From a virus: a stretch of 64,000 bases of DNA. Position 1 is the first letter of the stretch. The number at the start of each line of letters is the position of its first letter. The position numbers and the translations under genes are program-made. The stretch lies in IMG/VR virus record IMGVR_UViG_3300010167_000860, positions 7,964 to 71,963 of that record. One strand, given 5' to 3'. The notes beneath the pieces are model-generated. The model was given only the letters and a program-made list of their open reading frames with translations. It did no database searches and was not told the DNA's origin. This document shows positions 1 to 59,727 of the stretch, piece by piece.

Positions 1-945
1 TAAAGAAGCTGTATTACCTTCAGTTCAGTTAGATTGAACAGGTGTTACAATATTATTGATTGCTGTATTAACATCCACTACTCATTCTAATAATGTTGAG
101 TATGCACCAGGAATATCACCTGTAATATCTTCAACACTATGCTCATGTATAGGTATAGATCCAAAAGTATAACTTGTTGCTCCAGTTGCCTGTAAAATAT
201 GTCCTGCTGTTAATCCTGATACTGTATGATAACCTCCTATTAAAGGATGGTTTTCCATACCCACTCCTGGACCTCCTGAATCTAAATTAATAGTAGCAGG
301 TCCAGATTGGTTTAATGTAAAACTGCCTTTAGGAACACCTCCTTGATTTATAGTTATAGTTGGATTATATACAGTAGGTATAGTGTTTAAAGCAGTCTGT
401 AATCCTGTAATATCAGATATACCTAAGGTATGCGTATGATTACCTGCTGCTGCCTGATTAGCATTACTACCTATCTGTATAATACCTGCTAATGATGTGC
501 TTGCAGTAGGGATACCTGTTATAGAACTTCAGGATATTACTCCTCCATTCCCTGTACTGTGGTTATGGTTTAATAACCAATTATCTAAACTTACTCCTGA
601 AAAGGTCATATTTGCAGGAGCTATATTTATATTAGCAGATAATGACAAACCATTAACTGTTCTTGTCAAAGGAACAAAATCCCCTGATACACCCCCTGTT
701 ACCTGTACTCATTGTCCTCCTCCTGCTGTACCCTGTCTTCCATAAGTATTTCCATCATTAGGAGGTTCTTCAAAAGCCATTACTTCAGTACTAAGGGGCA
801 TCCATTTACCTTTCCTTCATTCTTTTCAGGTAAAAGGATCTGTATTAATATCTACTCATATATTTGCTTCACTTAATGAAGGGGCTACATTAGAAAAGAG
901 TATATTACCCTTTTCAGTAGATATTCTTGATAAAACATTATTCAT
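1..945 (-). CDS. Tail fibre / tail-spike-like structural protein (partial, runs off window start; TGA=Trp)
   Basis: ATG at 945; frame open to position 1 if TGA=W (7 in-frame TGA, 2 TGG). Fibre-type motifs EPPNDGNTYGRQ...W, ISWSSITGIP, HTHTLGISDITGL, VQSNWTEG. Contains track ORF 82..264. Confidence 0.75.
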
Positions 946-947
946 AT

Positions 948-3371
948 TTATTTCTTTATTGGTGATTTATTAATCTGTTTATTTTTAAGTCTCAACTCTT
1001 CAGCAGTTTTCTTTTTATCAAATTCAAACTTAGCTTTTTCAAGACTATGTTTATCATTCCACTCCCTTATTTTTTCTGATAGTTCTGCTTGTTTTTCAGG
1101 GTTATATGGAACTTCCTTAGGAACTTCATTAGCTTCATTATTCATAAGATTAGTTTCACTTTGTATCCCTGCAATCATAAGTTTTGTTTCATTATCTCTT
1201 ATATTATTTTCTTCCAATAATCTTAATTTTCCTTCTTCTAAGGCTGCCTGTTGTTCTAACTGTGCCTGTTGCATCTCCCTTTCTGCTTGTGCTGCCTCTT
1301 GTTGTTGTTGCATAGTTCTTGCTTCACTCTCCTGCATAGTCCTTGTAATTTCAGCAATAGAGTTTGTAGTTTTAATCTTTATAAGGTCTGAACCTGTCAT
1401 TAACTGATTTTGTACCATAGCCTGAGCTAATCCATCTAAACTTTGTATTAATTCCTGAGATTGTCTGCTATCCTGTATTACTAATCCATAATCACACTCA
1501 CAAAATTCATCCCCATCTATATCTATAATCTTATTAGTTCCATCTGATAATAAGTATTGAAATTTCTTTTTCTGTCCTCTTAATGCTGCTTTAGCTGTTT
1601 CTATAAAACATTCTAATACCCTTTTCTTGACATTATCATGTGTCATAAATAACCATTCAGTTATATGAGAACTTTGTAACACTGACCTTTCTACTCCCCC
1701 AACAGTTTCCCTGTTATCTATAGCCCCTTCTCTTTGTTTAGTTATACCTACCATAGAGGACATAGTCTCAGTTATCCATTCTAGGACATTAACATAATGC
1801 TGTATCTCATCTCCCTGTGTAGCATCTATAACCCCTGAGGATTGATTATTCATAAGTCCTGCTAATTTTCCCATAGCAGCACCCTTATTACCTTCTTTAA
1901 AACTGTCTGTTATAGCTATCCTGTTTATCTTGGCATAATAAAGCCATTTATCTACTTCCCATCCTGATGGTACAGTTGCCAAATCCATCTTAACTATCTT
2001 ACCCCAGTTAGTAGCCATAACCTTTAGCATATTATCCATAGTAACATCATACAGATAATTATACCATTTCATCATATCTACCATAGAGTAAGGCTTACTG
2101 TCATTAAGATTATATATACTTCCTACTATTCCAAAATGACACCTTGAAGGGTTTTCTAATCTGTTATACTGAACTACTCTAGGTCTCATATTAACATAAA
2201 CCTTGCCTATCTTAGTAGCTTCTCAGGCTTCCATTATATATAATATCTCTACCTCTTCTCCCACATCTTTGTTAGGGATATAGTCCTCTGGGTAAAAATT
2301 AAAGTCCTCTTCTCCAGTCATAGGGTCATAAGACTTGACTTTTTTAATTCTTCTGTAGGATTTTCAATAAAGTCTAAGTACCCTAATATTACCAAGATTA
2401 TCAGTGATATTAGAATAACTGTACATAGGGGGACCAAATAAACCCAGCCTACCTTCAACAACAACACCTTCACCATATTCTCCTCCTCAGGGATCTAATA
2501 AATTATAACTCTTTTCCTCATCATAATTAGCCTGATTATCTAAAGATGTAGAACCAAAAGGAAGTTCTGTTATATACTTTATATCACTTTCCTTTAATAC
2601 ATCATAAAAAGTATCCTGTATCCTCCCTGGGCTTCAATAATCCCATAGAAGTATCATATCTGCATCTTCTACCCTGTTTGAAAAACCTGACCTTATAACC
2701 TGTATTTTCTTAGGATTTATTCTTTCCATAGTAGGTTCTCCTCCTACTATATCACATTGATATATCTCCTCCCCACATATCATAGCATCCATTATCCCTG
2801 AATTAAATTTTAAAGCCATATCAAGTTCTTGATAATAATGCTTTAAAAGATAATTAGCTCTTATTTCCCTAAGATCTTTTCATTTATATTTGTAGTAATC
2901 CTCTATCTTAGCTAATTGTTTTTGCTGTTCCTCCTCTGCTCCTTCCTGTTCAGGATCTATTCCCTGAGTTATCCACTGTTCTAATTCCTGCATCATAAGT
3001 TCTTTTTTCTGCTCATTCATCTCACTTATAGCTTCAGGATTAGTTACTACAACCCTTGCATCAAATCTTCTACCTCACTCTTCTCCCTTAATAATATTTA
3101 ATTTTGAATTTATAATAGGATAATGCTGTATCTTGTCAGGATTAAAACTGGATTTAATCTGATTAGGATTAAGAACTAACTGTACATCATCCATATCAAG
3201 TATTCCATTAACCAAGTTATAATTGATTATCTTATTCTTAATGGATTTTCTTGTATATGAATTATGTATAAAATAATTCTTATCTGCTCAATCTATACAC
3301 TCCATCCTCCACTTCTTATTTTTACTCCTGTAAGAAAGTTTTTGAGGAGGCATTCTATTAAAGTCTTGCAT
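948..3371 (-). CDS. Portal protein, crAss-like (~807 aa; TGA=Trp)
   Basis: Track ORFs 948..2189 and 2634..2819 share one frame with ATG 3371; the junctions examined are TGA at Trp-like positions (MEA-W-EATKIG). crAss portal-like motifs QREGAIDNRETVGGVERSVLQSSHITEW. Confidence 0.85.
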
Positions 3372-3392
3372 ATTTACAATTTTAAATATCTA

Positions 3393-3400
3393 CAAAAATA
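3393..3400 (-). promoter_or_regulatory. Bacteroidetes sigma-A -7 box (TATTTTTG) upstream of portal
   Basis: Matches the TAnnTTTG consensus ~20 nt upstream of the portal ATG. Confidence 0.55.
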
Positions 3401-3571
3401 ATAAAAAAAATAATAATTCAGTCAAATATAAAATTTTCTGTTAGATTACATAATCAATTAAAATAATAAAATAGAAATTAAACTTTCCTAAATCCTTTAT
3501 TTTAAATTCAAGTATCAAATTTATTCTTTTACTTTTGTAATGAATTTAATTAATATTTTATGAAAAAAAGT

Positions 3572-3603
3572 AAAAAGAAAGGAGGGAAATTTGCCCCCTC
3601 CTT
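3572..3603 (-). terminator. Intrinsic terminator after terL
   Basis: GGAGGG/CCCTCC stem followed by a U-rich tract on the minus strand, just after the terL stop. Confidence 0.65.
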
Positions 3604-3620
3604 ATGAGAATTTTTTTACC

Positions 3621-5981
3621 CTAATCTGCTGTAATATAACTTTTGATTTTATATTTTTCATCATACTTTCTTAATTTCTCTAACGTATTATCATTCATAT
3701 TATTATTAAACCTGTCATCATAATTTTGAGTAAAGAATTTATCATTACCTAAATAGTTTTTATCATTAGCCCTATTTTCCTTTTCTCCTGTTCCTCCTCC
3801 ATAAAGTATTAATCTTTCTTCCCTAAGAAGCATTAAAGCTCCTAAAGCATCGTGCCTATCAGTGTTTAAATCATTACTAAATGCAGCTAATTCCTTTAAT
3901 AATGCCCTATATACTATTCTTCTCAGGTTAGGTATTGTTTCTTGTATTTCCTGTGCTTCTCCCTCCTCTGCATTTTTTGATGTAAGGATTTCCACTGGTT
4001 TAAGGAGAAAGTCTCTGATATGTCTTCTGTACATATTTTTGACAGGTTCTGTGGCTGTAAATCCATAGGAACTACTTCCCAATGTTTCTTTGTAAGCATG
4101 TTTATCTTTTAAATATTCTAAAGTTTTTGATAAATATCTAAGTGAGTTATATTTTTGCATATAACTGTAAAATCCCTTTTTATTATTTTCATAACAGCAT
4201 TGTGCATTATAATACATTAATAACCTTCTGGCTATTTCAAAAGTATCATCTGAAAAAGTATATCTTCCTGTATATTCTGCTACTATATCATCTGTTCATA
4301 AATCTAATACATATACAGATAATAAAGACATAGATTGTGCTGGTCCATCAATTATATCCACAGGGTCTAATCCTGCTATATACCTTCCCCAAGGTATTTC
4401 TCCTGAACTATCATTCTCAGGATGATTTTTAATATATACTGCCCCTTCAGCTTTATTATTATTCAAAGGAAATTCCTGAATAGCTTTTACATCTAATGAA
4501 GGTTCAAAAATTACCTTACTATCCCTTATAATAAGATTGCCCTGATACATTCTATTTAATATGTCAGGATTATTATCTATTTCAAATACCCTGTCATTTA
4601 AATCTGCTACAGGGTATATAGTTCCATCTCTTCTCATTATAGCTTCCTGAAGGGTGAATGCTATCTCTGCCCTTCTTTGGGTAAGCTCCATTGGATTATT
4701 AGAATTATACTTTATAAAATATCTTTCTTTTAATTCATACACCAAAGCTCCTATAACATCGGATACCCCATCTTTATTAAAAAAAGGTCTGTAATTTACA
4801 TATCCAGGAAAAAAGAAAACAGTGTTTTTTGCTCCTAAACTGCCTCTATCATATACATTAGGAATACCATAAACATTCTTAGTTTCAGGAGAATATATCA
4901 TATCTAAAGCCCCTTCAAATGAATTTCCAGGAGTTCCTCCGGTCCCTGTACAGAAGGCTGTACCAAATACTATAGCCCCTTCTTGAACATTAGGCATAGA
5001 AGTAGCAAACCACTCATTAAATTTAGGAAATTTACCAAATTCTTCTGCAAACAATAAATCATTCCTCCTCCCTCTTGTTTTTCCAGGGTCATCTGCTATA
5101 GATATACCATTTATAGCATTTTGAGGACCTCTTTTATTATTATCAGAATCTACTCATCCACATACCCAGGACATATTAGAAGGGGATTTTTGAGAACAGG
5201 TAGTAGGAAACTGTGTGGTCTTAGATAGATGATCTAACCCAAATTCAAACTTTCCTAATATACCATCTTCTCCTGATAAATACACCTTATCACTTGCAGT
5301 AACTAATCCTACCCTATTATTACTCCTTTCCTTATCTATACCTATTGTAAATAATTTAAGCAGCATTGAAGCTAGGGAGTAGGACTTGGATTTAATCCTA
5401 GAAGATATTTCAGCACCATGAGAACCATTTTCCCTTGCTTGCTCTATATAATGAAATCTTCAATAAACTCCTTCCCAACATTCTGGTAAATCATCTTTTC
5501 TAAACCCAACTTTTTTACCTGTTTTGGTTTCAATAGTTGTGTTTAATTTCATTAATAAGTAATTAAGATAAAAATACATATCTCCTGTTATTCACTCTCC
5601 ATCACTCTCCCTTACCATACCATTTCAACACCTATCTAACTCCTGCCTAAACCATTTCATATATTCAGATTTAGGAGAAGTATTAAGTTTTAGTTTAGTA
5701 TAACAACCATACTCTTTAAAATGTAAAGCAGCAGGTCTAAAGAAATCCATATTTTCGAGATAATGAGGCATAGTTAAATTAACAATTATTCTTCCAGTTT
5801 TGTCACGTGGAAGCTCACAAGCTCTTTTTCTCTTTAGAGAAATTAAATTTTGAATAAAAGGAACATTGTTGATATAACCTAAAAAATCTTCTCAACATTC
5901 TTTTGGCATACTATCTCTAAGTTCTTCAGTAATTTTAGTTTGAAATTTATTAGTAGGAATAATTTCATTTATATTTTTCAT
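3621..5981 (-). CDS. terL: Terminase large subunit (786 aa; TGA=Trp)
   Basis: Track ORFs 3621..4217, 4296..5054 and 5154..5366 share one frame with ATG 5981. Read-through restores crAss TerL motifs ELDRC-W-NGMVRESDGE-W-ITGDMYFYLNY and DL-W-TDDIVAEYTGR; Walker B-like LFAEEFG; RNase H-like YIAGLDP; ends in TAG. Confidence 0.92.
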
Positions 5982-6841
5982 AAAAATCCTCCTGCATGTT
6001 TATATTTGCCTTCAGCACTTCTCATTATACCTCTATTATCTATTGATGTTACTCTGCTTGCTTCTCTAATACTATTAAATTCCTGAATATAATTTCCGTT
6101 CATATCATATTGAGTTACTTTTATAGACTTATTATATTTGTTTTCTTGAATTTTTACTCTTCTATCTAAATCCTCCAATTGGTTTTCTCATAAGAATATA
6201 TATCCATTAGCAGTACTACAATTTTTAAAAAAATTGCAACATGCTAATATATTTATATTACACATATTTAATTCTCTTGATGCTTCATTGGCTGATCTGA
6301 AAATTTCTATCAATTTCCCATCAAGAGAAAATTGATACACTTTTTTCTTAGAATGAGCAATTTTTATTTTTTCTATAGATTCTGCACTTCTTTTAGAACC
6401 TCTATTTTTGTTTTTATCACTTAATAAAAATGATTTTATTTTTTCTATTGTTTCTTGAGTAGGTTTATATCCACATATTCCTTCTCCACCATCAGTCATA
6501 TTATAAGACATTTCATGTGTTTTATACCATGCAATAAGATATTTTTCAGCATATACAGCATGTTTTTTTGATATACTTTCTAAAACAATTTCTTGTTTTA
6601 TATTTTCCCACCCATATTTTTTTATGGCTCTATTAAACAATTTTTGATTTTTATAGCCCCTTCCATAATTTCATCTATTATTTATACCAATTGAAGTAAT
6701 GCCAACATACACTCTATTTGAAGGAGAGGTGTGTTTATATACTGTTCATTTATTATCTTCCTCTACCTCTTTAGGCAAAGTATCTAATAACTCTCTGGTT
6801 ATTTTTGTTTGGTAGGAATTTGTTTTTATTATTTCTTCCAC
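5969..6841 (-). CDS. GIY-YIG homing endonuclease with NUMOD-type DNA-binding repeats, N-terminally fused to a TerL-like leader (290 aa; TGA=Trp)
   Basis: From GTG 6841: ...K-W-TVYKHTSPSNRVYVGITS...NNR-W-NYGRGY...FNRAIKKYGW, then two VxQ(Y/F)xxxG...HTH repeats ending ANGYIFL-W and AGGFL-W-KI*. Joins track ORFs 6188..6640 and 5978..6178. Confidence 0.88.
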
Positions 6842-6934
6842 TCTTCTTTGTTATTTATTAAAATTACTTATTTTTGCCCTTAATTCATAATATTATGAAG
6901 AAATTTCTTTTTACATTAAAATATGAAAAAGAAA

Positions 6935-6971
6935 AATAAAAAGGGAGGTGGCAGCATTAACCACCTTCCCT
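6935..6971 (-). terminator. Intrinsic terminator
   Basis: GGGAGGTGG/CCACCTTCCC stem with an A-tract on + (U-tract on -). Confidence 0.6.
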
Positions 6972-7197
6972 GATTAGAAATAATCAGTATAGTTGTTACA
7001 CTTATTAGCATTGTTATAGGAATTGCTATCCTATTCTCTGCTAACCAACAAAAAGTAAACAACTTTCATATTTATTCTCCAATAATTATTGTAGAATAGT
7101 GTCTCTTTATTAAAAAGAGTTTAACAAGTATCATCACATACTTGATAAAGCTGTATAATCAGTTTTTCCTCAGGATATGATTCCTGAGGATTTTTCT

Positions 7198-7362
7198 TTA
7201 TTCCAAAAAAAATCCCATTACATAATCACACTTTTCACATTTATAAACATCCATAATTCTTTTCATTTTTATACCTTCTTTATTCATATTAGATTCTATA
7301 AAGCTAACAAGTTTTTTCTTAATATAGTTACATTTAGGACAAGGATAGTCTTGTATTTTCAT
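7198..7362 (-). CDS. Small zinc-ribbon protein (54 aa)
   Basis: MKIQDYPCPKCNY...YKCEKCDYVMGFFLE*; two CxxC pairs; below the track length cutoff. Confidence 0.6.
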   Translation of the reverse strand: MKIQDYPCPKCNYIKKKLVSFIESNMNKEGIKMKRIMDVYKCEKCDYVMGFFLE

Positions 7363-7480
7363 AACTCTTTGTTATTATTTCCTGTTAGGAATTTTGTGAG
7401 ATATATTTTATAGTACTATATGTAATGCTTGTTTACAGGAGTACTTTTTATTCCACAAAACTCCATAACAAGAAAATTAT

Positions 7481-7789
7481 TTAACATCCCTCATTACCTT
7501 CTTTATACATATCTTTAACCAAGTCATAGTTCTTTCATTTCTTATATTCACCTGATATTAGTATATCAAATAAATATTCAAATATATCAGCTTCAAGATC
7601 ATCAAATCCAGTATTTTTAAATTCCTTCAATAACTTCCTTGAGGTATCAGGATAATTAACCTGATATAATCTGAATATAAAAACATTCTTATTTGTAAAG
7701 CCTTGTCTTTCTACTCCCTTCTCAACAACTAAAGTACATAGTCCTGAGATTTTTTTGTTTATTAGGTCTAATGATTTATATATATTCAT
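7481..7789 (-). CDS. Hypothetical protein (extended through TGA 7535)
   Basis: Track ORF 7535..7789 stops at TGA; read-through adds WKNYDLVKDMYKEGNEGC to TAA 7481. Confidence 0.55.
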
Positions 7790-7945
7790 AGTTTAATATT
7801 CAAGTATTATATCTGCTAATTTTATCTTAATTCAATTAAAACACAATTCAAAAAAATTATCATCTTTTTTCATTGATTTTTCTTTTCTATCTTTTTTTCT
7901 TCTTTCTGAGTTTATCTCTAAATTATCATTTTCTTTCATAATATC

Positions 7946-8167
7946 TTATAATGTATTTATTAACTCTTGTTTTGTTCTAAATAGATTTTCTTCACGAAAA
8001 CCAGCAATAGTAAGACCATATATATGAAAACAAACTTCTGATTTTACATTTAAAAAATATAAAACTTTATCATCACTATCTAAAAAAATACCTGTAATAA
8101 TATCTTTTTTAATCCCATCTTCAGTTATACGAAATACCTCATCATATAAATTATACTTGTTTTTCAT
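7946..8167 (-). CDS. Hypothetical protein
   Basis: ORF track; resembles the short phage family pattern of 27404..27628 (F-x-I-x-E/D-E-V-F...LF-x-T-x-E-E). Confidence 0.55.
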   Translation of the reverse strand: MKNKYNLYDEVFRITEDGIKKDIITGIFLDSDDKVLYFLNVKSEVCFHIYGLTIAGFREENLFRTKQELINTL

Positions 8168-8180
8168 ACCTTATAATATT

Positions 8181-8711
8181 TTATACATTTGACAAGCCAA
8201 GATCACCTATTGTAAGTTGTGTTTTTCCCCTTACCTTAGCACTCTGTTCCTCTATATCTTTAAATATCTCCTTTTCAGCTATAGACAGTTCTACTGCTAA
8301 CTTATTACTATCTGATATAGCCTTAGTAAATTTAGCCATATTATCATCATCTAATACAAGTTCATCTAAAAAGGTATTAAGTTTATCCATCCTTCTCCTA
8401 TTCCCATCTATAAGTTTTGAAGAAGATGTTATTACCATTTTCTGATAAATATCTACACACTGTTTATATTCAGGAAAATCAAGAAATTCATTTATATCTT
8501 CTATTCCTAAAGCCTCACTTACTGTTTCTATTTTCTCATCCCAGTCAGTTATATAATTATAATCAGAGCCAGGATGAAACATAAAATACAAATAACCAAA
8601 GATAGTCATAGCCTCATCAGCATTTCTTTCATACATATCCCTGAAACATTTTATATGAAATGCTTCATCAGATATTACTAATTCATTATTTTTAAATTCT
8701 ATTAGTTTCAT
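8181..8711 (-). CDS. Conserved crAss-like hypothetical protein of the terminase neighbourhood
   Basis: 176 aa; GYLYFMFHPGSDYNYI motif recalled from crAss genes near terL; no in-frame TGA. Confidence 0.6.
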   Translation of the reverse strand: MKLIEFKNNELVISDEAFHIKCFRDMYERNADEAMTIFGYLYFMFHPGSDYNYITDWDEKIETVSEALGIEDINEFLDFPEYKQCVDIYQKMVITSSSKLIDGNRRRMDKLNTFLDELVLDDDNMAKFTKAISDSNKLAVELSIAEKEIFKDIEEQSAKVRGKTQLTIGDLGLSNV

Positions 8712-8898
8712 CTTCAGTAGTGTAATAAGGATTATCTGTCATATATAATATTACTTTATGTTTACTATTTTCTCCAACATAACATTTAGGTAGTATCTTG
8801 TAACACATCTTATTCTTTACATCATTTTCAAACTTTACAAATACCTTTGCTTCATTAGAAAACTGTTCCAAATATTTTTTAAATTCTATTAGTTTCAT
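8692..8898 (-). CDS. Hypothetical protein flanked by 21-bp direct repeats
   Basis: ORF track; repeats at 8691-8711 and 8878-8898. Confidence 0.55.
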   Translation of the reverse strand: MKLIEFKKYLEQFSNEAKVFVKFENDVKNKMCYKILPKCYVGENSKHKVILYMTDNPYYTTEDETNRI

Positions 8899-9124
8899 TC
8901 CCTGTATCTATTATTAAATAATCCCTCTTATCTTTGTAAAGTTTATTATCAAGATATATACCTCTAACATCTATTTCTTTGAATCTTTGATCTGGAACTT
9001 TATTTCCTTCTTCAGTAATTGTATGTCCATAACTTTTTTCTATGATATTTATATTAGGACATTCAGAGGCTTTTAAATGTTTAACTACTGTTTCTAATAT
9101 CTGAATTAAAATTATTCTATCCAT
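8879..9124 (-). CDS. Hypothetical protein
   Basis: ORF track; overlaps and is translationally coupled to the next gene. Confidence 0.5.
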   Translation of the reverse strand: MDRIILIQILETVVKHLKASECPNINIIEKSYGHTITEEGNKVPDQRFKEIDVRGIYLDNKLYKDKRDYLIIDTGNETNRI

Positions 9125-9155
9125 TCTATATATCTTATTTTTTATAAATCTAAAT

Positions 9156-9500
9156 CTATTTTTTGTTTTCTAACCTTTCATTCCACTTATAAAATTGTAA
9201 TACTCTACTATCCATCACCCCTTCCTCTATAAGTGTTATAGCCTCACTTTCTGTTATAGGGAATATCCTAAAGTGCAGAAATACAAAGTAGAGGTATGCT
9301 AAACTTACAGCTAAAGGAACAAACATTAAGTAAAATATAAGATTTATATCCTGATAGGAATAACCACACATTAAGGCTGATAATACTAATGAAGGAAATC
9401 CCCACAAAGTACACTTATTATAGTTAAGTTGATGTTTCCCTAATTTAAGCGCTGAAGCAATACAAAATTGCTTTATTATAAATAATCTAAATTTTGTCAT
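9156..9500 (-). CDS. Small membrane protein (two hydrophobic segments)
   Basis: LWGFPSLVLSALMCG and LIFYLMFVPLAVSLAYLYFVFL segments. Confidence 0.55.
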   Translation of the reverse strand: MTKFRLFIIKQFCIASALKLGKHQLNYNKCTLWGFPSLVLSALMCGYSYQDINLIFYLMFVPLAVSLAYLYFVFLHFRIFPITESEAITLIEEGVMDSRVLQFYKWNERLENKK

Positions 9501-9511
9501 ATTAATCTTTT

Positions 9512-9546
9512 AAAAACCCCCTGGCTATCCATCAACCAGGGGTAAA
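9512..9546 (-). terminator. Intrinsic terminator
   Basis: CCCCCTGG/CCAGGGGG 8-bp stem with an adjacent A-tract on +. Confidence 0.65.
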
Positions 9547-9574
9547 GTGTACAACGTGTTAATTTTAATGTTAA

Positions 9575-10009
9575 CTAGTTCAAAAGATGGATTTTTGAAT
9601 TTTTCTTTTTCTTATATGCCTTACCTGAAGATACCTCTTGTTGTTCTTCCATTTCAAGAATAATAAACACAATATCATTACATCTAAGGTTAAGACATTC
9701 CTTATTATCTATATCAATAGTAGGGATACTAAATGCTAATTGCTGACTATACTGCTCATCAAATCCCTGTATAGCATCTTTCCTTTGTACAGGTCTGGCG
9801 TAATTATAAAAATTTACCATAACTGTATCTCCTACATTAATTCCTCTTTGTTCTGCCCCTGATGAGGTAAACAAAACTTCCTGGTATTCCTTAAAATTAC
9901 CAGACTTTGTTGGATCTAATAATCCCCCTGTAGTATAAACTTCATCATACCTGTTTCCTGTGGTTATTATCCCATCCATTAATGGTTTTACTTTCTTTAA
10001 TACTAACAT
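9575..10009 (-). CDS. GroES-like co-chaperonin (crAss type)
   Basis: KKVKPLMDGIIT...GINVGDTVMVNF...DIVFI resembles the GroES KPLxDRV / VKVGDxV pattern. Confidence 0.6.
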   Translation of the reverse strand: MLVLKKVKPLMDGIITTGNRYDEVYTTGGLLDPTKSGNFKEYQEVLFTSSGAEQRGINVGDTVMVNFYNYARPVQRKDAIQGFDEQYSQQLAFSIPTIDIDNKECLNLRCNDIVFIILEMEEQQEVSSGKAYKKKKNSKIHLLN

Positions 10010-10068
10010 CCTTTTTTTCCTCCTTTTTTACCACCCTTTTTTACTGGGCTATTTTTTTGTCCTTTCAT
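10003..10068 (-). CDS. 21-aa Lys/Gly-rich basic peptide MKGQKNSPVKKGGKKGGKKGC
   Basis: ATG 10068 after an A-rich leader; TAG overlaps the start of the GroES-like gene. Confidence 0.5.
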   Translation of the reverse strand: MKGQKNSPVKKGGKKGGKKGC

Positions 10069-10089
10069 AATTTTGTTCTTTTAATTGTT

Positions 10090-10383
10090 TTAATCCTTTA
10101 ATATTTCAATTCCATACTCCTTACATACTTGATGTTCTACCCTACATCCTCTTGCATCCTGCCATCCTTCCATAAAATATACACAATCTGCATCTGATAT
10201 ACATTCTATTGATTTTGCAAGATATTTTACTGGCACATTTCCTTTACTTATAAAATCAGGAAATATAGTACTTATAATCTCATAACCATCCTTTAATAAT
10301 CTTTTTATAACAGGTTCTCTCTCTTCCCTAATTTCCCCTTCTGTCTTACCATTCATAGGCTGACAAATAACTACTTGCATCAT
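10090..10383 (-). CDS. DUF4406-like / nucleoside-deoxyribosyltransferase-fold protein
   Basis: ICQPMNG...ADCVYFMEGWQDARGCRVEH pattern. Confidence 0.6.
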   Translation of the reverse strand: MMQVVICQPMNGKTEGEIREEREPVIKRLLKDGYEIISTIFPDFISKGNVPVKYLAKSIECISDADCVYFMEGWQDARGCRVEHQVCKEYGIEILKD

Positions 10384-10384
10384 A

Positions 10385-10657
10385 CTACTTATACTTTATA
10401 ATATTTAACTCTCTCTTTTTCCTTAATTTCTTTAAATCTATAAAAAATCTACAAAACTTAGGAATAAAAAAATTAGTCCCAAGTTCTGCAATATTTTCTA
10501 CAGGTAATCCTTTTAATTCAGGTAATCCCTTAACTGTAACCTTCATAAATGAAAATACACTATCATATACCTTTTTTATTACCTCAGGGCTTCTATGATG
10601 CTTATTTCCCAAAGTAACAAACAAATCATTCAAAGATTTATAATTAGTCAGTTTCAT
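10385..10657 (-). CDS. HU/IHF-like DNA-binding protein (crAss type)
   Basis: Basic 90 aa; VIKKVYDSVFSFMK...TNFFIPKF resembles crAss IHF-like proteins. Confidence 0.5.
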   Translation of the reverse strand: MKLTNYKSLNDLFVTLGNKHHRSPEVIKKVYDSVFSFMKVTVKGLPELKGLPVENIAELGTNFFIPKFCRFFIDLKKLRKKRELNIIKYK

Positions 10658-11036
10658 TTATATTAAAAGCTACTAACAATGTAAATTTATTATTAGATAT
10701 ATCAGGAATAATCCTCCTGTTTAAATCCCCATTCTGTATAACACCTATACTCTTAAACAAAGATATTAAGTTATAATACCCAGCCTTTGAAGTTTCTATA
10801 CTCTCCATAACACAATTCCTTGTTTCTACAGAGAATAATAACTGTGGGATAAGTTTAGGTTCAGTAACCCCTTTAGAAATTTCATACCTCTTAGTTAATA
10901 AAACTGCTAAGGCTTCCATAGGTTTAGTTCCTAATTTTGAAATAGGTTCTAAAGGTTTTATAAACAGTAACCATTTCTTGTAAAAATCTAATAATGAACT
11001 ACAAGTTAAATTTATTGATGAATTACCTTTTACCAT
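10644..11036 (-). CDS. Hypothetical protein
   Basis: ORF track, 130 aa, within the operon. Confidence 0.55.
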   Translation of the reverse strand: MVKGNSSINLTCSSLLDFYKKWLLFIKPLEPISKLGTKPMEALAVLLTKRYEISKGVTEPKLIPQLLFSVETRNCVMESIETSKAGYYNLISLFKSIGVIQNGDLNRRIIPDISNNKFTLLVAFNINETD

Positions 11037-11038
11037 AA

Positions 11039-11353
11039 CTACTGATTATCTGTGTTAGTTTCCTCTTCCTCTTTAGGAGGATAAAGTATAGCTATTAATT
11101 CATTAGCCATAATTTTGTTAGCCTCTTCAGGAAAACATTCCTTATTAAATTCTATGTAGGAACACTGTAGTTTCAAACATTCTAATAATAATGATATTCT
11201 ACTTATTTTCCCAGCTTCCTGATAAGCCTTTTGTTTCCATAAATTAGCCTGCTCTTCCATCTGTAGTAAAGCATTCTTTAGTTGTTCATAAGACAACTTT
11301 TCATCTTTTTGTCCCATATTAATTATAGGAGCTTCATTCTTATTTTCTTCCAT
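11039..11353 (-). CDS. Hypothetical coiled-coil protein
   Basis: KLSYEQLKNALLQMEEQ helix; ORF track. Confidence 0.55.
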   Translation of the reverse strand: MEENKNEAPIINMGQKDEKLSYEQLKNALLQMEEQANLWKQKAYQEAGKISRISLLLECLKLQCSYIEFNKECFPEEANKIMANELIAILYPPKEEEETNTDNQ

Positions 11354-11364
11354 TTGTTTAAAAT

Positions 11365-11745
11365 TTATTCTATATTTATATGTAAATAATTTAACTCTTC
11401 TCTTGTATATTGAACTACATAATATTCACTTATCATTTCTTCAATTTCATTAGTTATACTGTCCCTATCATTCTTCTTATTTAAAAATTCCTGGTATTCT
11501 TTATACTCTTTGAGATTTTTAAATACTCTGGGAGGTTGTAAAGCCAGTCATTCAAAAATACTTCCCTCACTAATATTAGTACTTAAACAATGTTCACAAT
11601 AAGTATTGGGACATCCTTTAACAGTACTGTTTAAAGATAATATAGATAAAGACAGACATCTATTACATCATAAGACAGGTTCATCATTATACTCAGTATT
11701 TATCTGTGATGGACTGTATTCTTGCAAACATTCTTCAATTTCCAT
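11365..11745 (-). CDS. Zinc-binding protein, crAss-type (126 aa; TGA=Trp; absent from track)
   Basis: MEIEECLQ...YNDEPVL-W-CNRCLSLSI...YCEHCLSTNISEGSIFE-W-L; two CxxC pairs; two in-frame TGA. Confidence 0.75.
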
Positions 11746-11746: not shown

Positions 11747-12139
11747 TTAAGTTCAGTTAATATTATTCAAATCCATCTTTACAGCAAATTTAGGAATTAT
11801 AGACTGCCTTGCTAATTCCTCAACAATCTTATAATCCTTATCCAAAGTTTCCTTCAATATCCATCTAACATTTCCTGTCATTTGATACTTAACTTTAACT
11901 GCTAACTCTGAAATTTCAAGGGTATAAATCTCTATTATCTCAGGAGGAGTAAATAATGGTCTTGGAGTACCATAAATAAGGTATCTATTAAGTACCTTTA
12001 AATCTTTAGTGCTTAAACTATTACTCTTACAGCAGTTCTCTATATTTTCCACAGGCACAGGTCTTTTCTTTTCTTCCTGTTTCCTTATTTTCTCATCAAT
12101 AACCTCTTCCATTGTAGGTTTTACTTTCTCTTTTTTCAT
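11747..12139 (-). CDS. Hypothetical protein (TGA read-through to TAA 11747)
   Basis: Track ORF ends at TGA 11753; read-through gives ...NINWT* with TAA-T-ATG coupling to the next gene. Confidence 0.6.
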
Positions 12140-12166: not shown

Positions 12167-12238
12167 CGGGCTTACAAGGCTATGCTCCCTGGACTTTAGT
12201 TTTGAAGACTAATATATTTCTGATTATACTATAAACCC
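12167..12238 (-). tRNA. Opal suppressor tRNA-Trp (anticodon UCA), non-canonical D and T loops
   Basis: GGGTTTA-TA-GTAT-AATCAGAA-ATAT-A-TTAGT-CT[TCA]AA-ACTAA-AGTC-CAGGG-AGCATAG-CCTTG-TAAGCCC-G: 7/4/5/5-bp stems, 72 nt, U33, A37, G73 discriminator; CCA not encoded. Confidence 0.85.
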
Positions 12239-12243: not shown

Positions 12244-12489
12244 TCAATATACTGTTAAAAACATTATACAATTTTTTCCATTTTTATTCTCACAAAAAAT
12301 ATGTTTCCTTTTATTATACATTATATAGTAATATACTAATGAATTTTTTCTTTCAATTACATCTATCCCTTTTTTAAACAAATCTGCTAAATATTGAAAC
12401 CTTTCTCCAGGTCTAAGATTTAGTCTTTCTTTAAGTCTGTTAGAACCGTGATTAGTTATTACTATATTCATATTACTTATTATACACAT
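12244..12489 (-). CDS. Small protein with possible BECR/DUF4258-like RNase-fold signature
   Basis: ITNHGSNRLKERL near the N-terminus, MFLTVY at the C-terminus; ends at TGA (read-through extends to TAG 12229). Confidence 0.45.
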   Translation of the reverse strand: MCIISNMNIVITNHGSNRLKERLNLRPGERFQYLADLFKKGIDVIERKNSLVYYYIMYNKRKHIFCENKNGKNCIMFLTVY

Positions 12490-12784: not shown

Positions 12785-12818
12785 AAAAACTTCCCCCTGC
12801 TAGTTCAGGGGTTTTTCT
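12785..12818. terminator. Possible bidirectional terminator
   Basis: CCCCTG/CAGGGG stem flanked by AAAAA and TTTTT. Confidence 0.5.
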
Positions 12819-12894: not shown

Positions 12895-12963
12895 AAAGGA
12901 TGGCAGGATATAAACCTGCAATCTCCTGATAAAATCCAGGGCTTTAATTTAAGCTACATCCCT
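12895..12963 (-). tRNA. Degenerate tRNA-like cloverleaf (pseudo-tRNA; anticodon not assignable)
   Basis: AGGGATG/CATCCTT acceptor, GCTT/AAGC D-stem, CCTGG/TCAGG stem with a 6-nt loop ATTTTA, GCAGG/CCTGC T-stem with loop TTTATAT. Confidence 0.55.
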
Positions 12964-12976: not shown

Positions 12977-13183
12977 TTATTCTTCAACTGTACTAATATT
13001 CAAAGTATCAGATTCCAAGTAAATATCTTCTAATTCCTCAGTAATCTCATAAACTTCCATCTTTACTTCTTCTTGTAGTTTACCCTTGTTATGCTGAATT
13101 ACACATAACAAGATTACTAACATTACTATTAAGCCCACTATTCCAAATATTACAGGCTTTAACCAAGTTTTTAATGTTTCCAT
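12977..13183 (-). CDS. Small bitopic membrane protein
   Basis: VIFGIVGLIVMLVILLCVI transmembrane segment followed by an acidic tail. Confidence 0.6.
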   Translation of the reverse strand: METLKTWLKPVIFGIVGLIVMLVILLCVIQHNKGKLQEEVKMEVYEITEELEDIYLESDTLNISTVEE

Positions 13184-13210
13184 TCACAAATATATTTATT
13201 AAATTTTTCA

Positions 13211-13218
13211 CAAAGGTA
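13211..13218 (-). promoter_or_regulatory. -7 box TACCTTTG heading the leftward operon that contains the suppressor tRNA
   Basis: Exact TAnnTTTG match on the minus strand. Confidence 0.55.
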
Positions 13219-13400
13219 AGGATTATTTTAATATATCCAAACATATTTTAAAATATTTTTATTGATTTTTGTTATAAATATATAAATATTATAAACACTA
13301 TATCTTTTAAGATAAAATTACGTTTACAAAATTATAACAAAAGTTTAAGAAATTGAAATGTTTAAACTATGTTTAAACTATTAGTATTATTAATTTTTAT

Positions 13401-49571: not shown

Positions 49572-52500
49572 TTAAAATACTCCTTTATTAATAACATTTA
49601 TCCTTTCTTTAGGATCTGCTATTACATCTATCATTCTTACACCAGGTATTACTCCTGAAGCTGATCTCCATAATTTATTTTTACCTGTATGTCTTCCTCT
49701 TTCTACTTCATCTGCCCAATTCCAAGGAGTTACTAATCTTGTTCCAAAGGTCATTACATTCTCTAAATAAGTAGTTGCTGCAACAGGGGCTTTAAAAGTT
49801 TTTCAGTTATAACTTAACAATTGATGGTTAGGTATAACAGAACCTAATTCATTCTTAGTCCTAAGTATCCCCAAAGTAAGCATATTTAATCCCCAATTAT
49901 CATCATCATCATCTCCTCCTCCCTTTAAATTTAATAAAACCATAGTTAATATTGAAGCTGAAATTAATCCTATAATATCTACCATAGTTCTTATCATATT
50001 AGCCTTTTCTTCATCTGACAGGTTTGAGTATAAATCTGCAAATTCTTTAGATTTTCAAGCCTTAGCAGCTTGTCTTAAAAATGTTCTGTAAAACCCTTCA
50101 GTTACAGCATCAAGATTATAATCATAATTAGCTTGTTGCCATCTCCTATTTATCATTTGAGGTACAATATGCTTTTTAAACATAAAGAATAATTTAGCAA
50201 GAGCATTTCTTTGTGCCATAGCCATATCATCTTTATTATATATACCATTTAATCTTTGGTATACTGCTAAGGATTTTCTTGAAAATTTTCCCACATCTGC
50301 GTCATTAAATGCTGTGCCATCGGTTTTAGTATAACCTTTCTTAATAACCAATCTTGCTATATTTCCTGTTTCTACTACTTCCATAGCATCTCATAAGTTA
50401 GTCTCCTTTCCATTAGGATCTATCATTTTGTAATTATAAGCTAATGCAAGCCCTATTTCATTATAAGCAGAATGTTCCCCCATATTATTAAACATATACA
50501 TAGTATCAGCGTCTAAAGCCCTTCCTAATTTAGTTTTTCTGTGCATTTCAAATCCTCTTATCCTATTCTCCTGATCTTGCATAATATTAAATTTCTCTGA
50601 GAATAAGCTTAGTTTATTTTTCTTAACCCTGTTACCAAGTTCTTTTAATACGTAGGGAAGGTTTTTAGTGTAAGTAACTTTTGCATCTTTTATATTAGTC
50701 TTACTAAAGAACTGCCCTGAAAATCCTTCTATCCACATCTGAAATCTATTATTTAATGAGTTAGATATACCTGCTGGGAAGTTAAAAGCCATACCATTTA
50801 AAGATACTATTGTGCCTAATGCACCTAAAGCTTTATTAATAGGAACATCTTTTTTCCCTATTTTCATAACTCCAGCATCTTTTATATACTTTCCATATAC
50901 CTGAGCCTCTATATATTCATCAAATTTTGTTAATAAATTTGAAGCTAATACCTCAACAGTACCATCTTTATTTATAGTGTCTTTCCCATATTTAATCTTT
51001 TCAACTAACTTTTTATTACCTCTTGTAGCATTTATTTTATATTTATTCACTAAAACATCTCTTAATACTGATAAAGAGCTAACTACTTTAGTCATTTCAC
51101 TAAAATTATTAGCCATATTAGCATATACTATCATTGAAGAGGTTAAGTCTGTAGAAAGTTGTGAAGTATCTTTTATTCTGTTAGTATAATAAACAGGCAA
51201 TATATTTAGGGGCTTATTATCAAATCCTAAAGATATATTACTCTTATTACCCATTTCATCTTCTGTTTCCCTCATAAGGAAAGTGTCCCCTAAAGATGAT
51301 TTTAACTCTCCTAATAACCCTTTAGCCCCTGTTACTCCCTTTAGCCTCTCTATAAAACTTTTCCTTATTTGAGGAGCTTTAAATACACTTGTTGCTATAG
51401 CTAAATCTCCTTTATAATCTCCTTCAGTATAAGTTCTGTCTATTAACCTGTCCATAGGGAGTTTTTTATCTAATCTTCTTTTTTCATTTATTATAGTATC
51501 ATAATATCTCTTTTGGGCAGTATTTAAAGCCTCATATTCAGGATTACTATAAACAGACCTTTTAGGAACACTATAACCATTAATCTTTTCAGAATTTGCT
51601 AAATGTCATTCTCTTCATAATTTCTTTATTTCAGGCAGTTTATCAGGATCATTAGGGTACATATTTTTTAACCTTTCCCTTTCTATGTAATAATTTTGCC
51701 AGTAAGTTTCATAATCTCTATCCTGTAATAAATTACCTGTTTTTTCCCCTTCTTTATTTTCATACATAAAATCAGTATTTTTTATACCTGATTGTTCTAA
51801 TTCTATGTGAGCATCTGTAAATATCTTACTATCTTCAGTAGTAAGTAATCTTGCATTATCTTTATTAGTCCTTACTATCTGATCTACAGTTCTTAACATT
51901 AGATTATTACTGTTAGCCATAGAGTATATTCAAGTATCCATAAATGTAATATCTGAAAAACTTTCTTTTATTAATTCCTGAAGAGTAACTTCTTTACCTT
52001 TAAAATCTACTATCCTTCTATCTCCAAAGAAAGGTTTAAATAATTGTTCTGTTAAAGGTAATCCATTTCTTATATATTCCCTTTCTAATTTATTCATAGC
52101 ATCTAAAATACTTGTAGAGCCTTTATAAATCCTTTGTTCTATAACACCTGTATCACCTTCATATAAATCAATTAATCTTTCTACTAAAGGTCTATAAGCC
52201 TCTATATATGTTTTACCATCTAAAAGAACTTTAGCTACATCATTAACTTCCTTTCCAGGAACTCCATTCTCTATTTCAAGATTATTTCAATCTTCTTTAA
52301 GTATCTTTAAATCCCTTCAGGCTTCTTTTAATACATCTAAATTTCCATCTAATATTTCTCCTTTATCTAACCTTTTTCTTATAGCTTCCCTTCTTCTATT
52401 TTCCTCCTTAGATAGTCCAACATTTCTTTCCTTCCAATTTTTATTTATAATAGATAATCTTTTAACTGTAGCTTCTTTTCACTCTTCTAACACTGTTTTA

Positions 52501-55500
52501 GCATCATCTATCTCAGTATTTAATTTATATAACATATCATCATCAATGATATTATCAGGATTTAATTTAAGAAAATACTTACCATCTAATATTGAAGTAG
52601 CAAGTTTAGAGAACATTTTATCAGCTTTTAATAATTTTTTATCATATTCTGAAACATTTACTTTCTCAACTTTTCTTTTAAATATGTTCTTAACTCTTTC
52701 AATAAAACTTTGTAAGATACTTAACTTAGGCTTAGCAACATTATCCATTCTTAACTGTATCTGCTGTACTATAGACCTTCCTATCATCTTACCTATAGCT
52801 TCCCTAAGCATTAAATCCTGCCTGTCATTATATCTCTTTTTATATTCTTCATACTTCCCTTCTCCTTCTACATTAAAAACTGCTTCCATCACATCTTTAT
52901 TAGCAGCAAGATAATCACTTAACCTACCCATTATCTTTTCATTTCTTAAAGCAGCTTCTATAAAGTGTCCAAATTCTTCAGGTAAAGCAAAATCCCCTTT
53001 TATACCTTTAGCAACTCTTATTAAATTACCAATATCTTTAGCAACATTACTTAATACTGAAGGGTCAAATACTCCTGTTATACCTTTCCTTTCCTCAAGT
53101 TCTGTTAATGCTCCTATAGGAATACCTGCCTGTTCTAATAACCTTTCTATCTCTGACCTTATTTGTTTGTATAATGCTTCTCTTTCTTTTGTATTTTGAT
53201 TATTATTATCTGTGCCTAAACTATATAATTGTTTATTTTCTGTTTGATTATCTATATCTTCAGCCTTAACATTACTTAACCCTGTCTCATTTAAAATAGA
53301 TATTCCTACTTTTTTTAAAGTATCTATATCACTTTCCTTTTCCTCTATACCACCTTCATAGTGATATGGGTCATATTCTTCTTTATAAGCATCAAAACTA
53401 CTTTTTTCTTCCCCCCTTTCTAATAAATAAGGATTTTCTGAGTAAAATTTAATAGGATATTCTCTTTTATATCCTGTACCATCAAAAGAATAATAAGCAT
53501 TACTATCGCCAAAAGGATTAGGATAGGCTAAAGGTACAGAAACAAAGTATCCATAAGGATTTTCTCTTGTATTAATTACATCTTTACCTGCTACCATTCC
53601 TTTATATACAGTATTATCTCCTTCAATAGGAGCAAAAACACTATTAACTAAATCTTTATTATCAAGATTTCTTAGTATAAACTGTTTTCAAAATCCCCAA
53701 TCTTCATTATTATTTCCCCCTGTTAAATCTCCTTCTTTACTTTCAAAGTGATTATCTGCTCATTGTTGTATTCTTCTTAGATAATTTATATATTCAGGCA
53801 TTGCTTCTTTAACAAGACTTGGTATAAGATGTGCAAAGGATTTAGCTTCAAAATTAAATCCTGATTTATAAAATGTATATACTGCAAGGTCTATTGCTAA
53901 TTGTTTATAATCATCATCATATAATAACTGTTCCCACTCCCTCATAACAACATTAACATCCTCAGTAGATAGTTTACCTGCATTATTAAATACTATACCT
54001 TCCTTTTTATCAAATTTTAAAGACTTAAATAATTTTAGATTAGCTAAATAATCATCATTTTCTCTTAGCTCTTTAAATAGTTTAGGAAACTCTTTTATAA
54101 ACATATCTCTTTGATTACTATCTCTTAATTCTAAAAGACTATCAAATGCAGAATCCCTTTGAAGTTCCATATAATATTCAAATATATTCTGATATATCTT
54201 ATTTATAGTTTGTGGACTCAATTTATTTCTTCTACTAGCTTTTATTAATCTATTCACAACACTTTGAAAAGATGTAGATAATTGAGGGAATAATACTTCT
54301 TCTCCTACTTTATTTAATACATTCTTTGTACTTTCTAATCCTAAGGTATAAAACCCTTGTAAGAATTTAAGAGGAGCATTATTTAATTTTTCTCTTAGTA
54401 TATCTTTATTTTCATTAAAATTCTCAGCAGTTATTCCTTTTGTTAAATTATCCTCATCTAAAAATAATTCCCTTACACCTGATAAAGGATACCATTCCTC
54501 TGTACTATCTGATTTTATCTTATCTATTTTATTAAGATTACTTATAGTATCTGCTATTTTAGGTCCTGAAGGTATAGTATCCACTTTTAATAATGCTGAT
54601 AAATCTCTTATAGCTTCCCCTGCTTTAAGCATCTCTGCAAAATTATTTGCTACTTCTATCTGAAAAGCAAGATGATCTACAAGGGATTCTGTAGATAAAG
54701 TTTTTAATCCTTTTTTATATTGAGTTATACTTCTTTCTAATTCATTGATAGTTAAAAGTGATCCTTCTTTAGAGGACTTTTCTACTCCACTTTTAACTAA
54801 AGTATCTTTTATATATTTTTCTGTTTTACTTATAAGTTGTTTTATAATAGTATCTTTATCAGGGTATAATTCCTGTCCTGCTATTTTAGTAAATTCTTTT
54901 ATTACAGGCTGATTTAAAAATAATCCTATCTCTTCTCAACTATACCCTGTTCTTGCTAATAATGCTGCTACATTAACAGTATTTAAGTCCACATTTAAAC
55001 TTAAAAATACAGGCTCTTTTACTGCATCTACTGAAGCAGCTAAAGGCTCAGAAACATTTCTTGCTGTAAAACTATTTTCACTTGATAAATTTGTTAAAGA
55101 TTTTCCATTAAGCACATAATTACTTTTTACAGTTACATTATGTTGTTGTAAAATTGCGTGAGAAGTATTATGATTAGCTCATATTCCTATTAAATGAGTT
55201 GCAGCAGCATTTTGATTATGTAAAAATATTTGTGTGGAAGGTAATGTTATATCTAAATCTGTTTCAGGAGTTCCGTTTAACTCATCCATTTCCTTAGCTA
55301 CCCTTTTCATAGTATCAAATCCACCAGGTGTAAACATATCCACAGCAGCCTTAGGATGTGTTAATACTGCCCACATTATATCTTTTAATTGATTATCCCT
55401 TTGTGCTAAAGTTAAATCTTTTACAGGAGTATGAGAAGAATAAGGTATAACTTCATATTTACCTGTATCATAATTTAATTGCATAGTAGGTAATATAATA

Positions 55501-58500: not shown

Positions 58501-59720
58501 GTGATGTGGTTTTCAGCAAACATAATAACCTCTGTAGCATTATAAGTATTTAATCCTTCAGCATTATATATAGAAGTACCTTCATTTAAAACAATAGGTT
58601 CTTCTCCTGTAATATTATCCCCCCATTCTGATACTAATCCTCTTTGAAAATCTGATACATTTACATTTATTTTGTTATACTGTTTTGTCTTTTTATCTAG
58701 TTTTATAACACTAAAATTTGTAAAGGCTTTATTAAAATGCCTAAAAAACTGTATTTTAAGATGAGGATTATCTTCTAATTTTTCTATTAACTCTTCTGCC
58801 CATAAATTATTATTATCCTTTAATAACCCTTTTAACAGCATAATAATATCACCCTGCTTTTCTACACTCTTTAAAGTTCTTAATATTGTCTTTTTTACAT
58901 CAGAGGCATCTACTTTTCTATGATAACCTAAAAAGTTAGTAGAATTTGCTGTTTCCTGTTCCCCTGTTTCTTTATTTACTTTTACTTCTTTTTCTTTTAA
59001 TCCAAATAAAACCCTTTTAATTTCTGAGGGTAAATCTGCTAATGCTGATATTTGTCTGTAATTTATTTGCCATCCTTCTTTAGCCTTTTCCTCAGGAGTA
59101 TAATAATCTTCAGCCATATCTTCTAATTCTGATACTCCAAAATCATTCTCCATTGAATTTAATACTTCTAATATATCTCCATTATAAACATCAAATTCAA
59201 ATCCTTCTATAGCTTTAAAAGTGGACATAGCATTTTGCATAAGTCCATAGAAATTATCTAATATCATCCCAAAATTACTTGCTTTTTCTATATTTCCTGC
59301 TTGTTCTGCTTTATTCTTTTCATTGGTAAAGACTGTAACTATATGCTTGTATATATTGTCAAGATTATTATTCTTATTTTTTAATGACATAATATACTCC
59401 TTACTATCTCATATACCTGCTTTATTCTTTTCCATTTCTATACTTTTATAGAACATATCTAATATCATATCAGATAAATGATGTAATGTTACAGGATCAT
59501 ATACCATTCTTACTTTATTTAAAGCAGGAATATCATTAAATTCTTGTATTAATTCCTCTAACCTTTCTTTTGTAGGGACAGTTTCATTGTTTAGTATAAA
59601 TAAAGTTCAGGCTTTATTTACAGCCTCTTCTGTATTTATAGGATTACCCTTATCATCTTTTTCTGAAAGAGTGTTTACTAAGTCTTTTCACTCTTTACTA
59701 TTTATTACTGGACATTTCAT
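49572..59720 (-). CDS. Giant virion-associated RNA polymerase (~3,382 aa; TGA=Trp)
   Basis: Twelve track ORFs share one frame and are separated only by TGA; start MKCPVINSKE-W-KDLV; catalytic GLDFDIDK (DFDID at 55509-55523), GYRIPTE, LAASVDAVKEP, GDLAFFK. Confidence 0.9.
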
Positions 59721-59727
59721 ATATTTA

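Follow-up and report, generated by a model that had tools for sequence, protein, structure and literature searches.

A putative opal suppressor tRNA with a conserved non-canonical elbow at the head of the TGA-recoded late genes of a crAss-like phage

How are late genes translated in which TGA stands for an amino acid, and can a tRNA gene that lacks most of the usual nucleotides of the tRNA elbow be the decoder? These questions are raised by a locus within the 64,000-nt stretch of DNA analysed here (the window), which comprises bases 7964-71963 of an IMG/VR virus record with a genome of 105,836 bp (G000). Phage-encoded opal and amber suppressors, recoding of the late genes of crAss-like phages and charging of the suppressors by the host TrpRS have been described or proposed (PMC7886860; doi 10.1101/2021.08.26.457843). 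A detectable suppressor tRNA is reported for only ~35-40% of recoded phages (Borges 2021, doi 10.1101/2021.08.26.457843), and divergent tRNAs have been suspected in the many recoded phages without a detectable one (PMC7886860; doi 10.1101/2021.08.26.457843; PMC12386605). A phage suppressor at the head of a late block is a known arrangement; the new part of the present locus is a conserved odd elbow.

Recoded late genes and the tRNA(UCA) gene

The G000 genome is that of a crAss-like phage from termite gut. Its DNA was found in termite-gut metagenomes of two studies, its TerL and portal proteins match crAss-type PHROGs, and the portal is 52-53% identical to the portals of crAss001, DAC15 and cr111_1 (all Steigviridae). 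Completeness of the genome was estimated by CheckV at 92%, and a megablast search of the region against phages gave no match. The genome encodes a tyrosine integrase (13553-14761, plus strand) with its nearest relatives (53-62%) in Dysgonomonas, Paludibacteraceae and Tannerella. Adjoining the integrase is a tRNA-Thr(CGT)-like 5' half (13420-13460, plus strand) between repeated TGTTTAAACTA motifs. Integrase and half tRNA-Thr suggest a temperate crAss-like phage, likely with a Bacteroidales host.

When TGA was read as sense, the longest frame between stops grew from 659 to 3406 aa. The minus-strand (late) genes of G000 contain ~170 in-frame TGAs and the plus-strand genes (integrase, replication) almost none; a few of the plus-strand genes appear to end in TGA. 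The recoded features of the window are the following.

1..11745, minus strand: late block downstream of the tRNA, with small late genes, a GIY-YIG/HNH endonuclease, TerL, portal and a tail-fibre-like ORF (7 TGA)
948-3371, minus strand: portal, 7 TGA
3621-5981, minus strand: TerL, 6 TGA
11747..12139, minus strand: first recoded late gene, 130 aa, one in-frame TGA (ORF list, code 4)
49572..63999, minus strand: second recoded block, with 21 TGA in a stop-to-stop frame of 3406 aa and at least 9 TGA in the next ORF

The 21 TGAs of the 3406-aa frame lie in a 3383-aa ORF, and the minus-strand late genes run on past the end of the window. Outside the window, a 1448-aa late ORF (G000 82385-86728, minus strand) has 24 TGA against 4 TGG, so that a full-length product requires near-complete read-through at each UGA.

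More than half of the Trp codons of the late genes are TGA. Five of the seven portal TGAs aligned with an invariant W in four crAss portals. In an alignment with ~79 crAss-like homologues of TerL and portal, 9 of the 13 TGA positions were dominated by W and one by Y, and the pooled share of W was 66% at TGA positions versus 57% at the phage's own TGG positions. As judged from these positions, TGA is Trp in the late genes of G000.

The tRNA gene opens the recoded late block, and 27 nt separate its 3' end from the ATG (12139) of the first recoded gene. It was identified with Rfam RF00005, with ARAGORN -ps and by covariation with two homologues, one on a metagenome contig (L010) and one in a related phage genome (L013). 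Its parts are given below.

12167..12238, minus strand: tRNA gene of 72 nt with anticodon UCA; discriminator G at 12167, CCA not encoded
12180..12186, minus strand: non-canonical T loop AGCAUAG (A54 G55 C56 A57 U58 A59 G60); AGCAUAG in L010, AGCGUAG in L013
12203..12205, minus strand: anticodon U34 C35 A36 in the loop CUUCAAA (U33, A37, A38), which is invariant in the three family members
12218..12225, minus strand: D loop AAUCAGAA, with A18 G19 replacing G18 G19; identical in L010, AAGAGUA in L013, which retains AG

The acceptor stem (GGGUUUA/UAAGCCC) has seven pairs, one of them U-G. It is separated by U8 A9 from a 4-bp D stem (GUAU/AUAU), position 26 is A, and the anticodon stem (UUAGU/ACUAA), a variable region of 4 nt (AGUC) and the T stem (CAGGG/CCUUG) complete the 7/4/5/5-bp cloverleaf of RF00005. 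In a search of the 64-kb window the gene scored 46.6 bits with this model (E 8.8e-7; gathering score 29). The core nucleotides U8, A14, A21, U33, a purine at 37 and the pairs G53-C61 and G19-C56 are all present in the window tRNA and in both homologues. The original prediction, made from the letters of this stretch, had described the anticodon arm, the stems, the T loop, a D loop without GG and a G-CAA 3' end, and each of these is found when the minus strand is read. Indeed, CAA directly follows the discriminator G, and this end is ordinary among crAss-like phage tRNAs: in 63 distinct tRNAs from 80 crAss-like loci (alignment A4) the discriminator was followed by C in 59/63 and CCA was encoded in 4/63, the trailers being mostly CTA or CAA. 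From its anticodon and the recoding of the genes behind it, we infer that the tRNA is an opal suppressor with Trp as its amino acid.

Two diverged homologues

The first homologue was found on one JGI metagenome contig with a DNA pattern in which the loops were fixed and the stems left free. Because the pattern demanded the loops, the loop identity of L010 is partly by construction, and only its T stem, G73, trailer and covariation count as independent evidence. The L010 tRNA scored 44.9 bits with RF00005. Its acceptor stem is wholly different (ACCCUCU/AGAGGGU, with A1-U72), and its D and anticodon stems are altered relative to the window tRNA with each change compensated. The T arm, the D loop, the anticodon loop, G73 and the CAATTAA trailer are identical in the two, and outside the D loop, anticodon and T loop they share 59% identity (over 54 columns, 10 of which are the invariant T stem). 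The flanks of L010 have no relation to the G000 phage and contain in-frame TGAs.

The second homologue was reached through the portal, a route unbiased as to tRNA loops. A portal alignment search of IMG/VR yielded 80 crAss-like loci, the closest of which (L013, 65% portal identity) belongs to a complete genome of 106,389 bp with terminal repeats (G001). This genome is TGA-recoded, with 11 TGAs in TerL and 9 in the portal, and here too TGA occurs in frame at the Trp positions of conserved genes. Its late genes are collinear with those of the window. A covariance model (R1) was built from the window and L010 tRNAs; it retrieves the family tRNAs at 64-100 bits and gave a single match in G001, of 63.8 bits, at the head of the late block. 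This L013 ortholog has G73, the T arm CAGGG-AGCGUAG-CCUUG and the D and anticodon loops listed above.

In the alignment of the family, which has only three members, all 63 base-pair cells are paired and 11 of the 21 pairs show double changes. None of 500 shuffles equalled this, and slid-register controls were 36-54% paired. Six of the seven acceptor pairs have changed, and the T arm is invariant among the three except for R57. This invariance points to a constraint on the sequence of the T arm, beyond its shape alone.

The canonical tRNAs closest to the window and L013 copies, whether ranked by R1 score or by identity outside the loops, are tRNA-Trp(CCA) genes of crAss-like phages, from which both copies likely originated. 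The phage tRNA-Trp(CCA) genes (for example L027:62-132, L023:1935-2006, L019:1415-1486) resemble the window tRNA in having G73 and a location ~8 kb upstream of the portal, and their loop CUCCAAA differs from CUUCAAA in one base. They are at most 72% identical to the window tRNA outside the loops, and unlike it they have D loops with GG and T loops of the TTCRAnT type and read UGG only. The L010 copy resembles phage tRNA-Arg(UCU) outside its loops, yet carries G73 and A1-U72.

Exact and degenerate DNA patterns retrieved from IMG/VR only chance coding matches (L011, L012, L095) and the G001 record. A pattern scan of genome contigs gave 93 chance matches; R1 recognised no tRNA at the 79 genome loci that were listed or at the viral L095. 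The same model found no match in three Bacteroidales MAGs, and blastn of the family tRNAs against GenBank phages returned only noise (E~0.7). A third TGA-recoded member of the clade (L190-L202, from Logan runs SRR12977085-98) was found via a conserved late protein. Every contig read, from several runs, stops short of the tRNA region and ends within ~450 nt of the same point, which lies upstream of the small late genes. The shared ends suggest a repeat or hypervariable region where the tRNA would lie.

Decoding of UGA and rival explanations

No other UCA tRNA was found in the entire G000 genome with Rfam and R1, or in the complete relative G001 with R1. Proteins of the TrpRS and release-factor families are absent from both genomes, and a protein of the MiaA family is absent from G000; charging, CCA addition and modification of the tRNA would therefore fall to host enzymes. 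The identity set of bacterial tRNA-Trp consists of G73, C34 C35 A36 and A1-U72. Of this set G73, named as a TrpRS identity element in the original prediction, is retained with C35 A36 in all three copies. Two features of the window copy count against the best reading: C34 is replaced by U34, a necessity of the UCA anticodon, and the first pair is G1-C72 in the window and L013 copies, A1-U72 occurring only in L010. The retained G73 fits TrpRS identity, and charging with Trp by the host TrpRS is very probable.

The further claim of the original prediction, that this tRNA is the mechanism of the TGA recoding, gains from the TGAs at Trp positions, from its being the sole UCA tRNA, from its place at the head of the late block and from its conservation with covariation. 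With high probability, on these comparisons, it is a functional phage-encoded opal suppressor that lets a host, likely a standard-code member of the Bacteroidales, translate the TGA-for-Trp late genes. Efficient function is not to be taken for granted, since the elbow is without the near-universal G18, T54, Psi55 and A58. In a search for RNA runs containing the phage DNA, no RNA run was listed.

In the mechanism that we propose, the tRNA would be excised from a transcript starting upstream, possibly at TAnnTTTG boxes near 13190-13220. The region contains the following elements.

13187..13218, minus strand: TAnnTTTG -7 boxes of the Bacteroidota type, TACCTTTG (13211-13218) and TATATTTG (13187-13194), the nearest ones upstream of the tRNA on this strand and a candidate promoter
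12977-13183, minus strand: small membrane-protein ORF, after the -7 boxes
12794-12811: terminator-like hairpin between the candidate promoter and the tRNA
12244..12489, minus strand: small standard-code ORF whose stop codon, TGA (12244-12246), lies 5 nt ahead of tRNA position 1

On the strand of the tRNA the order is boxes, membrane ORF, second tRNA-like gene (see below), hairpin, two small ORFs and tRNA(UCA); in L013 it is box, small membrane ORF, hairpin and tRNA. Scans for Sigma-70 and TAnnTTTG promoters gave none that was convincing directly upstream of the tRNA, and transcription from the boxes further upstream is plausible. The -7 motif is frequent in this AT-rich DNA (128 in the window) and is thus weak evidence for the candidate promoter. 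The transcript would be trimmed by host RNase P and a 3' nuclease, and CCA would be added by the host CCA-adding enzyme. Host TrpRS would charge the tRNA with Trp via G73 and C35-A36, and host MiaA probably modifies A37, A36-A37-A38 being the context that this enzyme uses. The charged tRNA would read UGA, and probably UGG too by U34 wobble, in competition with RF2. Its production may gate late-protein synthesis, because the early plus-strand genes need no suppressor.

Two observations concern the same region. If the TGA of the small ORF is read through, translation would continue for five codons within the tRNA gene and stop at a TAG (12229-12231, minus strand). Furthermore, 660 nt upstream of tRNA(UCA) lies the second tRNA-like gene (12895-12963, minus strand; Rfam 40 bits), with intact acceptor and T arms, a T loop UUUAUAU and a D loop, AAAUUA, that lacks GG. 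Its anticodon arm, CCUG(G)-AUUUUA-(U)CAGG, has a loop of 6 or 8 nt, for which ARAGORN -ps90 calls a 2-nt anticodon. No look-alike was present in any of the loci retrieved; the gene could be a tRNA in decay, a mimic or a signal for processing.

A tRNA that reads UGA could insert a residue other than Trp, such as Arg (in view of A20, A59 and C35), the Gly of code 25, Cys or Sec. ARAGORN labels the tRNA SeC, which it does because of the anticodon alone: tRNA-Sec has an 8+5 or 9+4 acceptor/T helix, a 6-bp D stem and a long variable arm, whereas the window tRNA has a 7/5 helix, a 4-bp D stem and a 4-nt variable region. The case for Arg draws on A20 and A59 of the window copy, which can favour ArgRS and Arg identity in E. 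coli suppressors, and on the likeness of L010 to phage tRNA-Arg(UCU) outside the loops. In addition, tRNAscan-SE assigned another crAss opal suppressor to 'Trp or Arg' (PMC12386605). However, A20 is not conserved (U in L013), all three copies have G73 where phage Arg(UCU) tRNAs carry A73, and TGA stands at invariant Trp positions, so that insertion of another residue is very improbable.

Equally slight is the chance that the locus does not decode but, shaped like a tRNA, marks a processing site or acts as a mimic where the late transcript begins, with suppression coming from a host factor or an undetected RNA. Such tRNA-like punctuation is known elsewhere, and the abnormal elbow, the missing promoter and the defective anticodon loop of the second tRNA-like gene would fit it. 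The anticodon side of the molecule speaks for a decoder instead: the CUUCAAA loop, with its U33 and A37, shows neither defect nor variation, and its stem covaries. All three carriers are TGA-recoded, neither G000 nor G001 has a second UCA tRNA, and we know of no Trp-inserting UGA decoder in standard-code Bacteroidales. A decaying pseudogene, or a leftover of integration by the integrase/attP region, might be suspected from the location 1.3 kb from the integrase and near the half-tRNA-Thr attP core, from the non-canonical loops and from a thermodynamic fold that is weak and unremarkable (z -1.6), as is expected of an AT-rich tRNA. Decay is at odds with 21 of 21 pairs intact in three diverged copies, 11 of them compensatory, with loops and T arm that are conserved and do not drift, and with the late-gene TGAs, which demand a suppressor; this origin is extremely improbable. 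A phage-encoded suppressor that inserts Trp at UGA is therefore the reading preferred here.

The odd elbow and its detection

In this suppressor family the nucleotides of the canonical elbow are replaced at five positions in the window tRNA and both homologues: G18 by A, T54 by A, Psi55 by G, A58 by U and the pyrimidine at 60 by G, G19-C56 and G53-C61 being retained. The 54-58 pair is thereby swapped from U-A to A-U, and A18 with G55 replaces G18 with Psi55; for contrast, the canonical form has the D loop AAUUGGCA and the T loop UUCGAUU. In T loops U54, U55, C56, R57, A58 and Y60 are near-universal, with a natural A54, in an A54-A58 pair, in eukaryotic initiator tRNAs (PMC7912444). The ~125 tRNA matches (63 distinct) in the 80 crAss-like loci have T loops of the TTCRAnT type and D loops with GG; only the three UCA tRNAs and one tRNA-Phe(GAA) depart from this. 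The latter (L076:1194-1266, plus strand) lies in a tRNA array of another crAss-like phage and has the T loop AGCGUAA and a D loop with UAG, thus AG and not GG. It was found by ARAGORN and went unreported by Rfam when 45 kb were searched at E up to 1.

Since the elbow is conserved in three copies, it seems selected rather than decaying, and the comparison favours an elbow that was remodelled yet is under selection. That the T arm does not vary speaks for a constraint of some kind on its sequence; the elbow may be neutrally tolerated or may be an adaptation, either to decoding kinetics against RF2 or to evading, or being recognised by, a protein. The effects on processing, stability or escape from host nucleases that the original prediction raised are speculative. 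The geometry could be that of an alternative elbow, or A-G pairs may lengthen the stem and leave a triloop. A literature search did not find a description of an A18 / A54 G55 C56 R57 U58 A59 G60 elbow. That the elbow (T arm plus A18-G19 D loop) is an adaptation and not a tolerated oddity is a tentative idea, less likely than not. It might be a Hirsh-like change of the tRNA body that speeds acceptance by the ribosome and so beats RF2 at up to 24 UGAs per ORF; or it might be a handle that evades host tRNA-directed nucleases or surveillance, or one specific for a phage partner. If it is an adaptation, the elbow type shared with the L076 tRNA-Phe would be an undescribed alternative tRNA elbow used by crAss-like phages, and such an elbow would explain some of the suppressors that seem to be 'missing' from recoded phages. 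A candidate partner, an RlmN-like radical-SAM gene (phrog_24834, of unknown function; 47574-48359, plus strand), was rejected: it has no counterpart in G001, so its association with the suppressor tRNA is not conserved.

Several known tRNAs share one or the other feature with the window tRNA. The tRNA-Trp(UCA) of Mycoplasma and Spiroplasma (code 4) has UCA and G73 and inserts Trp at UGA, in cells without RF2 and with a canonical elbow, whereas the phage tRNA(UCA) would have to compete with host RF2. tRNA-Pyl is a natural reader of a stop codon without G18G19 and T-Psi-C, with anticodon CUA, a 3-nt variable loop, a small D loop and its own synthetase; its sequence is unrelated to that of the window tRNA, which has standard cloverleaf dimensions. 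A change in the tRNA body alone can reportedly raise UGA reading, as in the Hirsh suppressor (tRNA-Trp G24A). The window tRNA differs from the A54 of initiators and from the Hirsh mutant in that its 54-58 pair is A-U, position 55 is G and the anticodon is changed too. Closest in role are the UCA suppressors of gut phages, including that of the Lera phage, which are likewise phage-encoded, located near the recoded block and mostly without a phage TrpRS, with TGA read as Trp mostly in late genes; their hosts use the standard code, as the host of G000 probably does (PMC7886860; doi 10.1101/2021.08.26.457843; PMC12386605). Those suppressors were found with tRNAscan-SE and the accessible text reports no odd shape for them; the window family differs in its conserved A18 / A54 G55 C56 R57 U58 A59 G60 elbow and in being missed by ARAGORN at its default. 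A tRNA without G18, T54, Psi55 and A58 apparently carries the whole Trp-at-UGA load of a 106-kb phage, which makes it a natural test case for the need of the elbow in bacteria and for the competition of a suppressor with RF2.

The tRNA had been called cryptic and liable to be missed by standard scanners, and both descriptions proved right in part. With default settings ARAGORN reported no tRNA in the window or in the 105.8-kb genome and also missed the L010 and L013 copies. At the relaxed setting -ps, a check proposed at the outset, the window tRNA was the single match in the genome, called tRNA(tca), and L010 and L013 were also reported; -ps90 added the second tRNA-like gene and one likely false match in the genome. 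Infernal with RF00005 reported the window and L010 copies. The L013 ortholog went unreported by Rfam when the whole record was searched and again when 45 kb were searched with E up to 1, and scored 43.4 bits with RF00005 in a search of 201 nt, so the earlier loss was due to the speed filters and not to the model. The filters presumably lean on the conserved T-loop sequence. The tRNAs are thus cryptic to default ARAGORN and, in the relative, to filtered Infernal, but not to the full covariance model, which recognises and scores all three. The family is a concrete, conserved example of a divergent suppressor that escapes tRNA finders, and relaxed or unfiltered tRNA models are advised in annotation pipelines for recoded phages.

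Two further tRNA matches were noted in the crAss-like loci. One (L009:1205-1276, plus strand), in a crAss-like relative whose TerL is 45% identical, is an amber suppressor tRNA(CUA) of fully canonical form and lies ~4 kb upstream of that TerL; the carrier of this amber suppressor and the TGA-recoded lineages thus have in common a slot for a suppressor where the late block begins. The other (L042:1360-1412, plus strand), in a crAss-like tRNA cluster, is a 53-nt tRNA-like match with acceptor, D and anticodon arms, anticodon UGA and G73, and with no T arm.
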